A DNA stretch of 47,401 bases, taken from NCBI GenBank assembly GCA_050506795.1, contig JBJHCF010000012.1, positions 1 through 47,401 on the forward strand, written 5' to 3'. The notes below the pieces were generated by a model. The model was given only the letters and a program-made list of their open reading frames with translations, was not told where the DNA came from and searched no databases. This DNA comes from Opitutia bacterium. GTDB lineage: Bacteria > Verrucomicrobiota > Verrucomicrobiia > Opitutales > T3Sed10-336. Below, piece after piece: positions 46,473 to 47,104 of this stretch (the stretch's first letter is position 1; every line of letters begins with the position of its first letter). A program made the position numbers and the translations under genes.

Positions 46473-47030
46473 CGGGTAGTCCCGCGCCTGCGGGATACGA
46501 CCAAGTGATTAATCCCGGCGCGCCGGGACTCTACCACTGAGCGGAGCGAGAATTGAAGGTGGGGGTGATTGTGGGTTAAGGAGGCTGCCCGGGTAGGATT
46601 CGAACCTACGACCAAGTGATTAATCCCGGCACGCCGGGACTCTACCACTGAGCGGAACGAGAATTGAGGTTGGGGGTGATTGTGGGTTAAGGAGGCTGCC
46701 CGGGTAGGATTCGAACCTACGACCAAGTGATTAATCCCGGCAAGCCGCGACTCTACCACTGAGCGGAGCGAGAATTGAAGGTGGGGGTGATTGTAGGTTA
46801 TAAAGGCTGCCCGGGTAGGATTCGAACCTACGACCAAGTGATTAATCCCGGCGGGCCGGGACTCTACCACTGAGCGTAGCGAGATTTGAAGATGGGGGCG
46901 TATCATGGGGGGTTAAAGGCTGCCCGGGTAGGATTCGAACCTACGACCAAGTGATTAATCCCGGCACGCCGGGACTCTACCACTGAGCGGAGCGAGAATT
47001 GAAGGTGGGGGCGTATCATGGGGGGTTAAA
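46473..47030 (-). repeat. tandem array of 5 tRNA-Asn 3'-part copies (111-113 bp period) carrying a 16-bp palindrome
   Basis: Unit starts at 46583, 46694, 46805, 46918, plus a degenerate unit at about 46473; D-arm to acceptor 3' strand retained. Confidence 0.92.
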
Positions 47031-47032
47031 GG

Positions 47033-47104
47033 CTGCCCGGGTAGGATTCGAACCTACGACCAAGTGATTAACAGTCACCTGCTCTACCACTGAGCTACCG
47101 GGCA
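47033..47104 (-). tRNA. trnN: tRNA-Asn(GTT)
   Basis: TGCCCGGTAGCTCAGTGGTAGAGCAGGTGACTGTTAATCACTTGGTCGTAGGTTCGAATCCTACCCGGGCAG: full cloverleaf, GTT anticodon, G discriminator; CCA not encoded (CCT). Confidence 0.95.

Follow-up and report, generated by a model that had tools for sequence, protein, structure and literature searches.

The window, by which we mean the whole analysed stretch of 47,401 nucleotides (G000:C12:1-47401, G000 being the genome under study), carries near its right-hand end the sole tRNA-Asn(GTT) gene found in this genome (47031-47104, minus strand; ARAGORN), together with the gene for an 89-amino-acid single-domain GIY-YIG nuclease, P0001 (46182..46451, minus strand; Pfam PF01541, E 7.5e-17), and a series of partial tRNA-Asn copies. 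In the intact tRNA gene the native 10-mer CAGTCACCTG at 47072-81 forms tRNA positions 25-34, and in the ten assembled copies these positions are replaced by a hairpin, TCCCGGC-NN-GCCGGGA. Five of these copies are of a 3'-type and lie on the nuclease side of tRNA-Asn, the other five being of a 5'-type on its promoter side. The 3'-type copy that adjoins the start of the nuclease gene (46474..46542, minus strand) carries an anticodon hairpin at 46513-28 as well as a second hairpin at 46480-95, and is accompanied by four further 3'-type copies (46583..46988, minus strand; tRNA positions about 9-76, period 111-113 bp) with hairpins starting at 46624, 46735, 46846 and 46959. Three 5'-type copies (47145..47390, minus strand; tRNA positions 1-24, hairpin, positions 35-48, period 93-100 bp) have their hairpins at 47159, 47259 and 47352, and two further hairpin copies, both with loop gg, lie past an N gap outside the window end. 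A TTGACA promoter-like motif is present upstream of all 5'-type copies. The loops of the eight anticodon hairpins in the window read gc, ac, aa, gg, ac, ag, ag and ag, exactly as in the sequence-only reading of this DNA, whose coordinates and letters all agree with ours base for base; the one stem mismatch among the eight is that of the hairpin at 46735. These eight hairpins are tandem-array copies and not eight events, and their repetition is most likely due to direct-repeat recombination rather than to repeated cutting. Contig depth (50-63 vs 14) suggests that the true copy number is above the assembled number.

The second hairpin of the copy next to the nuclease gene, TCCCGCGCCTGCGGGA (46480..46495, plus strand), is situated in the T-arm, where it stands for the native GATTCGAACC and replaces tRNA positions 52-61. 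Both junctions are unambiguous and the flanks are in the orientation opposite to that of the anticodon hairpins. It had been taken for the same palindrome at a different tRNA site, which the stems contradict: the anticodon hairpin has a 7-bp stem with the inner part GGC-NN-GCC, the T-arm hairpin a 6-bp stem with GC-GCCT-GC. Both targets do fit A-N10-CT, as had been pointed out, but this pattern is weak on its own, with six occurrences in tRNA-Asn over both strands; the A of the pattern goes with the hairpin at most sites. An assembly artefact could be ruled out and the T-arm edit is regarded as one inherited event, because it is identical letter for letter, and accompanied by an anticodon hairpin, in a relative belonging to another genus (L001, L296). 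Run X1 probably represents the source sample and is hence not independent; its contigs cover 45906-46550 with zero differing letters. In RNA runs, only small shares of the stretch were present.

Exact TCCCG-N6-CGGGA occurs nine times in the window, eight of these in the array. When one mismatch is allowed, 21 matches are obtained compared to 5.7 expected, and 0/100 shuffles reach 21. A Markov control yields 7-17 hairpins against 31 observed, of which 22 lie outside the array, and many loose hairpin matches are thus attributable to chance. Folding the copies as DNA yielded z-scores of just -1.2 to -1.5, which does not support a stability beyond that of the stem itself. An orphan partial unit, consisting of a tRNA 3' tip, a spacer, a D-arm piece and a decayed hairpin (44279-94), is found at 44277..44356 (minus strand), ends two bases past its hairpin and lies upstream of a Wadjet-type operon. 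The nuclease gene's own 3' tRNA copy apparently stops after GCGGTA at 46196-46201, and in homologues the hairpin stands a few bases past that stop; this break and the one at the orphan unit are both near hairpin positions. Several other features of the window were recorded as well. The Wadjet-type operon (37423-44087; DUF3375, DUF4194/MksE, SMC-like ATPase, JetD) follows the cassette on its downstream side. It is accompanied by a gamma-glutamyl cyclotransferase gene (45559-46041) and a UPF0175/DUF3368 pair (44634-45381), and in the relative G009 a similar start adjoins a broken cassette. The cyclotransferase gene and its neighbouring stretch are duplicated about 19 kb apart (26402-26960 vs 45547-46163, 85-90% identity), a short sequence near 44436-44575 is seen again at 24481 and 25665, and a Type III-like restriction-modification pair (ResIII helicase, N6/N4 methylase) occupies 1838-7650.

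The PF01541 match spans residues 2-75 of P0001, in which Y5, Y15, G17, R25, H29 and E66 are all present. Across 45 homologues Y15, G17, R25, H29 and E66 are invariant and Y5 is found in 90% or more. The structural model of P0001 (pLDDT 83) has UPF0213, HIGLE and Slx1 as its closest folds, by fold and profile matches, and the protein presumably resembles the SLX1-like family cd10449; NCBIfam returned no match over its cut-off. P0001 is a small single-domain GIY-YIG protein, as are those of the Ssn family (cd10448). To our knowledge GIY-YIG domains are hydrolases with no strand-transfer step, and for this reason any pasting of the hairpin would require host repair. The protein tree mostly tracks host order, with L027 as one likely jump for which bootstrap values are not settled, a pattern that patchy loss of an inherited gene would explain as well as spread does. 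Two other small GIY-YIG genes accompany RNA genes in G000, one located behind tRNA-Ala(CGC) (G000:C7:104348-104820) and the other, which is stopped early, behind an apparent tmRNA end (G000:C6:93341-93600), the palindrome family being a different one in each case; G328 has the same kind of small GIY-YIG genes behind tmRNA and tRNA-His.

With the alignment of the 45 homologues, 80 genome loci and 80 metagenome loci were retrieved, and the cassette of intact tRNA-Asn, 89-aa GIY-YIG gene and hairpin-bearing partial tRNA copies was found to span Verrucomicrobiota and Planctomycetota. The names of the homologues mark the organism as an Opitutales-type member of Verrucomicrobiota. An intact tRNA-Asn lies on the strand of the gene in 122/160 homologue loci (123/161 including the window). 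Hairpin copies are present in 116 of these 123 loci, downstream of the tRNA in 108 and upstream in 44, so that 72 of the 116 are without an upstream copy; in these counts the right junction was set by the search pattern, the unbiased count being that of a separate junction search, and near-duplicate loci are included (74 of the 108 downstream cases are distinct). Matches to tRNA positions 35-45 outside the live gene follow a hairpin in 181/183 cases and native positions 25-34 in none, the remaining two being chance-like. Upstream copies extend a median of 12 nt past their hairpin before they end. Between the tRNA and the downstream copy, a distance of about 350 bp, homologue loci hold the GIY-YIG gene only and no integrase; nor was an integrase found among the 18 scanned of the 193 ORFs in the window.

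The gene itself is patchy, being found in 15/121 genomes of the order. In these genomes the hairpin pattern occurs in 12/15 with the gene compared to 13/106 without it, an overlap that is partly circular and in which kin genomes are not independent, while a reversed control pattern gave two matches in all 121 genomes. This upholds the tie between hairpin replacements and nuclease that had been proposed from the letters. The 13 genomes with the hairpin pattern but without the P0001 clade include G391 (36 strand matches), which has a tRNA-iMet-type cassette with a different stem. In relatives, tRNA-Asn loci carry hairpin copies in 4/6 cases with the gene against 1/13 without, and the genome of that lone gene-free locus has the gene on another contig. 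The same observations bear on the explanation that the hairpin is a REP-like passenger mobilised in trans by a Y1 (HUH) transposase, the GIY-YIG gene merely lying in a region where dead tRNA copies tolerate hairpins. Y1 transposases are indeed present in 5/5 genomes checked (5-117 matches; G000 16, G391 75, G351 117), HUH enzymes process single-stranded hairpins and carry out strand transfer, as described in the text available of PMC8266576, and dispersed hairpins often lie within other palindromic repeats. We nevertheless hold it to be distinctly unlikely, as the junction class of the hairpins tracks the GIY-YIG clade, 12 of the 13 gene-free tRNA-Asn loci are without copies and neither a GTAG nor a CGTC tag belongs to the array hairpins themselves.

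A function for the host was considered too, either with hairpin copies transcribed along with the tRNA as decoys or regulators, or with the nuclease restricting incoming single-stranded DNA at an integration hot spot. The conserved catalytic residues and the largely vertical tree are compatible with this, as are the promoter-like motif ahead of upstream copies in 29/35 loci with enough flank and the lowered integration of NTS-bearing DNA caused by SsnA (available text of PMC11893778). Set against this, the copies are incomplete, their number varies and many have decayed or have a second hairpin written over them, and the gene was not found in 106 of the 121 genomes of the order, so that we assign a host function very little probability. 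The cassette is more likely selfish nuclease-plus-hairpin DNA, of a variant that we did not encounter in the literature searched, from which most subscription journals were missing: neither the tRNA cassette nor the replacement product was described there.

To describe the replacement itself, we relied on the unbiased junction search, which returned 141 hairpins bordered on either side by sequence of the local tRNA. In 110 of them (81 loci) the hairpin joins positions 24 and 35 at a loss of 10 bases. A 28/35 join with 6 bases lost was seen in 12 hairpins from 8 loci with a GAGCGAG tRNA type (Planctomycetota where named) and a 27/35 join with 7 bases lost in one hairpin (L046), the left end falling in both cases at an AG nearer to the anticodon. 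T-arm sites lose 10 (51/62), 10 (57/68), 12 (56/69) or 15 (49/65) bases; gained pieces of 21-27 bases are accompanied by a loss of only 0, 3 or 4-5 bases; and hairpin length ranges from 15 to 22. Overall, lost lengths are 6, 7, 7, 8, 8-9, 9-11, 10 (four times), 12, about 12, 15 and 15. Ten is thus the commonest loss, in 4/14 geometries, but four equal values among 13 draws over 6-15 arose in 32% of simulations, and ten as the commonest value is not beyond chance. The universal replacement of 10 bp by a 16-bp palindrome, as originally read, does not survive these lengths. When hits were aligned to unedited alleles, as the sequence-only reading had suggested, no clean event showed a target-site duplication, and its claim of replacement instead of insertion stands, while the replaced length varies between 6 and 15 bases.

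A few rows of the junction counts were discarded. The apparent duplications in L006, L049, L132 (twice) and L159 are upstream copies whose right flank had been matched to its own place, and represent ordinary 24/35 or 28/35 joins; the L148 row (65) results from wrong anchoring of a 56/69 event; and the L008 rows and a 16-nt row are N-gap and decayed-hairpin artefacts. L014 has a 4-base tandem repeat that lies near its hairpin and not around it. Rewriting of the left flank to the new host was also set aside. Its signal (5/6 vs 6/67 at one D-loop position; 37/74 identical flanks vs 9.7 by permutation) is explained to a large extent by co-inheritance, and the L027 flank also fits donor-clade copies.

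A second GIY-YIG clade was found in the same loci behind tRNA-iMet, where 8 bases are lost at 38/47 in 17/20 anchor matches, and this join recurs in G391. One member of this second clade (support 100/99) resides in a tRNA-Asn array, L133, and its copy joins 38/47 on tRNA-Asn. Main-site geometry therefore tracks the nuclease clade, being 24/35 in the clade of P0001 and 38/47 in the second clade, as far as these alignments go. L133 is the best support for a set geometry, yet it is a single case, and TAA and TCG are common to tRNA-iMet and tRNA-Asn at the L133 joins, so that microhomology would explain the retargeting equally. The geometry proposed earlier as fixed is accordingly constant at the main site within each nuclease clade without being one universal rule. 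The tRNA-iMet cassettes also provide a candidate source for the second hairpin of the window. As TCCCGCGCCTGCGGGA is identical to the hairpins of three of them (L045, L110, L122), the two hairpins of the window likely come from different donors, the T-arm hairpin probably representing one further, older event with the hairpin of a tRNA-iMet-type cassette as donor. The tRNA-iMet of G000 itself (C4) has a relic copy with a decayed form of the T-arm hairpin and no nuclease gene. Other palindromic motifs, not of the TCCCG type, are likewise seen in the T-arm of dead tRNA copies in the downstream copies of L022, L079 and L050.

Away from tRNA genes, palindromes are dispersed above chance in G000, with 16 distinct sites (9 in the array, 7 dispersed) and none for the control pattern. 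A broken group II intron reverse-transcriptase gene has gained two codons by a hairpin, with 10 bases lost, relative to 3/3 homologues that span the site; the gene with this in-frame hairpin (G000:C31:3199-3899, L315) also has a second, unrelated palindromic insert further on. In an integrase gene the hairpin produces a net +1 base frameshift compared to a paralogue, at a loss of 15 bases, and a REP-like repeat has 7 bases missing at one of its sites and about 46 at a second. Other genomes add losses of 8-9, 9-11 and about 12. Most of the 60 dispersed-hairpin regions lie within larger repeats and just four kinds of site have an unedited partner; for the hairpins at C14:39347 and C11:27622 no unedited allele was found in 12 genomes of the family. 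Elsewhere in G000, a tRNA-Ser(GGA) gene (G000:C65:6250-6550) has a partial 3' copy 157 bp away that is interrupted by other palindromic motifs, and in G023 (L393-L399) the same hairpin with a GTCA tag occurs inside larger NTS-like repeats, linking this family to CGTC-tagged repeats.

Such events allow us to weigh a fixed-geometry cut and replace, in which both strands of the native target would be nicked 10 bases apart and the hairpin written into the gap. Ten bases are lost at four independent sites (24/35, 51/62, 57/68 and the reverse-transcriptase gene), possibly also at a fifth with a net gain of 7; the geometry is constant per clade, with L133 repeating 38/47 on a new tRNA; and target duplication is missing from every clean event. 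Such a mechanism is difficult to reconcile with the losses of 6 and 7 seen for the P0001 clade at the main site if an AG lies closer by in the tRNA (the 12 copies from 8 loci and L046), with the 12 and 15 bases lost at T-arm sites, and with the 0-5 bases lost where longer pieces are gained, while the fourfold recurrence of ten in the simulations and the frequency of A-N10-CT in the tRNA weaken its positive evidence. We consider it unlikely.

The hairpin itself rather has the appearance of a binding site. Its stems covary across lineages, position 6 being A-T in 144, G-C in 26 and C-G in 6 of n=188. Between adjacent copies, loops differ at 18/79 sites, stems at 8/448 and flanks at 17/806 (11/63, 6/336 and 14/598 with the window left out), and in the downstream units of the window loops differ at 6/8 sites compared to 10/244 for the remainder. 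That loops change faster than flanks might be due to conversion from dispersed copies or to damage of the loop on extrusion, both ideas being conjecture; loop change by inversion suits some pairs (L115, L134) but none of the loops of the window. In Neisseria meningitidis, SsnA binds its own hairpin as single-stranded DNA and cuts a few bases upstream, requiring the sequence of the stem and not that of the loop, according to the available text of Chenal et al. (PMC11893778). By analogy, the hairpin is more likely the predicted single-stranded DNA binding site of the nuclease than an immunity mark. Marking of sites made immune to the nuclease, as had been suggested, is unlikely because the native bases persist in the essential tRNA just upstream of the nuclease gene in 123/161 loci.

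The same observation counts against a classical homing endonuclease that would cut the native double-stranded tRNA-Asn of cassette-free alleles, the hairpin conferring immunity. Every partial copy has a hairpin and none has native 25-34, the gene is patchy (15/121 genomes), and the free-standing GIY-YIG enzyme SegB recognises a tRNA motif and homes (abstract of PMC2330249), all of which speaks for homing. It would leave an unprotected native site in an essential tRNA beside the gene, though, and would ask of an 89-aa protein without a separate DNA-binding domain that it recognise this site; moreover, immunity needs no covarying stem and leaves the hairpins in unrelated genes unexplained. Homing in this form thus appears very unlikely to us.

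The arrangement of tRNA halves around the intact gene offers a further clue. Three loci (L032, L124, L125) have TCCAGCG as the acceptor strand of the upstream copy, which pairs with CGCTG[G/A]A in the outermost copy downstream; the middle tRNA reads TCCAGAG/CTCTGGA and pairs with neither outer half. Where acceptor strands differ in downstream copies, 10/18 represent the other functional allele, and differing T-stems are compensated in 2/6. At several loci the linker before the middle tRNA is unlike the DNA before the upstream copy and has promoter-like motifs of its own. L124 and L125 share both flanks and differ by a second nuclease unit. These sequences point to the outer halves being a split host tRNA gene, with the middle tRNA as a spare, a signal given by three loci of which two are near-identical (in L088 it is confined to one side). 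In the majority of loci all alleles are the same, and the signal could also be imitated if the live tRNA had undergone a compensated change following a local duplication.

Taken together, the explanation that we prefer, and to which we give somewhat better than even chances, is that of a small, likely selfish cassette whose nuclease likely nicks beside the hairpin, after which host repair copies the hairpin into targets. The cassette, as laid out at these loci, would comprise in order a hairpin, tRNA positions 35-46, a linker, the spare tRNA, the nuclease gene, tRNA positions 11-24 and a hairpin, and would be set in place of bases 25-34 of the host tRNA-Asn gene. The nuclease would bind the hairpin in single-stranded DNA and nick beside it, as SsnA does. 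The freed hairpin end would anneal to the tRNA gene, or to another stem via 1-5-base microhomology, and host repair would copy this end in, overwriting about one helical turn, 6-15 bases and mostly 10, without duplication. Direct-repeat recombination would subsequently generate arrays or remove the gene leaving a clean tRNA, both of which products are seen, and the cassette as a whole may be mobile. Every chemical step of this explanation, whether cutting, binding or moving, is drawn from analogy. A wider proposition, possible though on balance improbable, is that tiny GIY-YIG proteins are the mobilisers of a new transposase-free class of elements, in which the hairpin proper to each clade is written over a defined stretch of a target stem without duplication. 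Because it would divide an essential tRNA gene and provide a substitute for it, such an element could not be removed when its two hairpin ends recombine.

Integrative elements at tRNA genes leave an intact tRNA at one end and a displaced 3' part at the other (attL/attR), with a junction in the anticodon loop. The cassette resembles them in the partial tRNA duplicate at its far end, as seen in the downstream copy of 108/123 loci, and differs from them in lacking an integrase, in having both 5' and 3' partial copies and in carrying a hairpin at the junction. With SegB of phage T4 (abstract of PMC2330249) it has in common a GIY-YIG gene in a tRNA region and, for SegB, a spread that carries tRNA genes along. 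SegB cuts double-stranded DNA at a 27-bp site including a T-loop motif, and that abstract mentions neither hairpins nor partial tRNA copies, in contrast to P0001, which is a bare 89-aa domain encoded on bacterial chromosomes. A homing enzyme of this type is expected to have a carrier allele without the cut site; should that site be the native 10-mer, the expectation would fail, as the 10-mer is intact beside the gene in the 123/161 loci mentioned. REP/RAYT systems (TnpA-REP; available text of PMC8266576 and PMC3733652) likewise combine one small, mostly vertical enzyme gene with dispersed cognate palindromes that also lie in genes and repeats, but here the enzyme is a GIY-YIG protein and not an HUH transposase, Y1 genes being located elsewhere in the genome, the copy number is low (7 dispersed), the array has no GTAG or CGTC tag and the hairpins are tied to tRNA genes.

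The closest analogue is the Ssn/NTS system (SsnA, Neisseria meningitidis, cd10448; available text of PMC11893778), to which a likeness with dRS3 palindromes had already pointed. In both, a small gene encoding a single GIY-YIG domain is bordered by its own hairpin, a layout of hairpin, gene and hairpin that the Ssn authors remark on as IS-like, and the hairpin has a core TCCC-N8-GGGA as in dRS3/NTS with conserved stem, free loop and oriented flanks. The array hairpins fail the Ssn motif, however: they are without the CGTC tag, and within 500 bp of the gene SRM matches number 0 in the array and occur on either side in 2/160 loci and on both sides in 0, compared to 123/134 NTS loci as positive control. 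Four NTS-linked GIY-YIG proteins, found beside NTS matches and used as proxies, SsnA itself not being among them, form their own clade (100/97) with P0001 outside at 33-42% core identity, and P0001 is without their C-terminal W-x-R-x-W-K...N-P-x-W motif. The cassette is moreover fixed at tRNA genes with partial copies, where the word tRNA is missing from the main text of PMC11893778, and shows a replacement of target bases of which that text describes none. We therefore propose, by analogy, a cassette that may work like Ssn/NTS, membership of that system not being supported by the SRM and proxy-clade tests. The spread of short palindromic repeats in bacterial genomes is an open question, and for NTS/dRS3 only cutting has been shown. 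At the present loci, the presence of edited next to unedited alleles shows directly what a hairpin move produces: 6-15 bases are replaced without duplication, at positions specific to each nuclease clade. For an 89-aa enzyme that does not belong to the Ssn clade tested so far, the substrates can thus be specified exactly and the products predicted. Should this enzyme be what drives the moves, few autonomous mobile elements would be smaller than the cassette (about 350-450 bp, spare tRNA included). It would also be a source of frameshifts and in-frame gene changes, as in the integrase and reverse transcriptase here, and provide a new set of sequence-specific single-stranded DNA nucleases. To the known systems this analysis adds the length distribution, the clade-specific geometry, the events in protein genes, the allele test and the likely separate origin of the T-arm hairpin.
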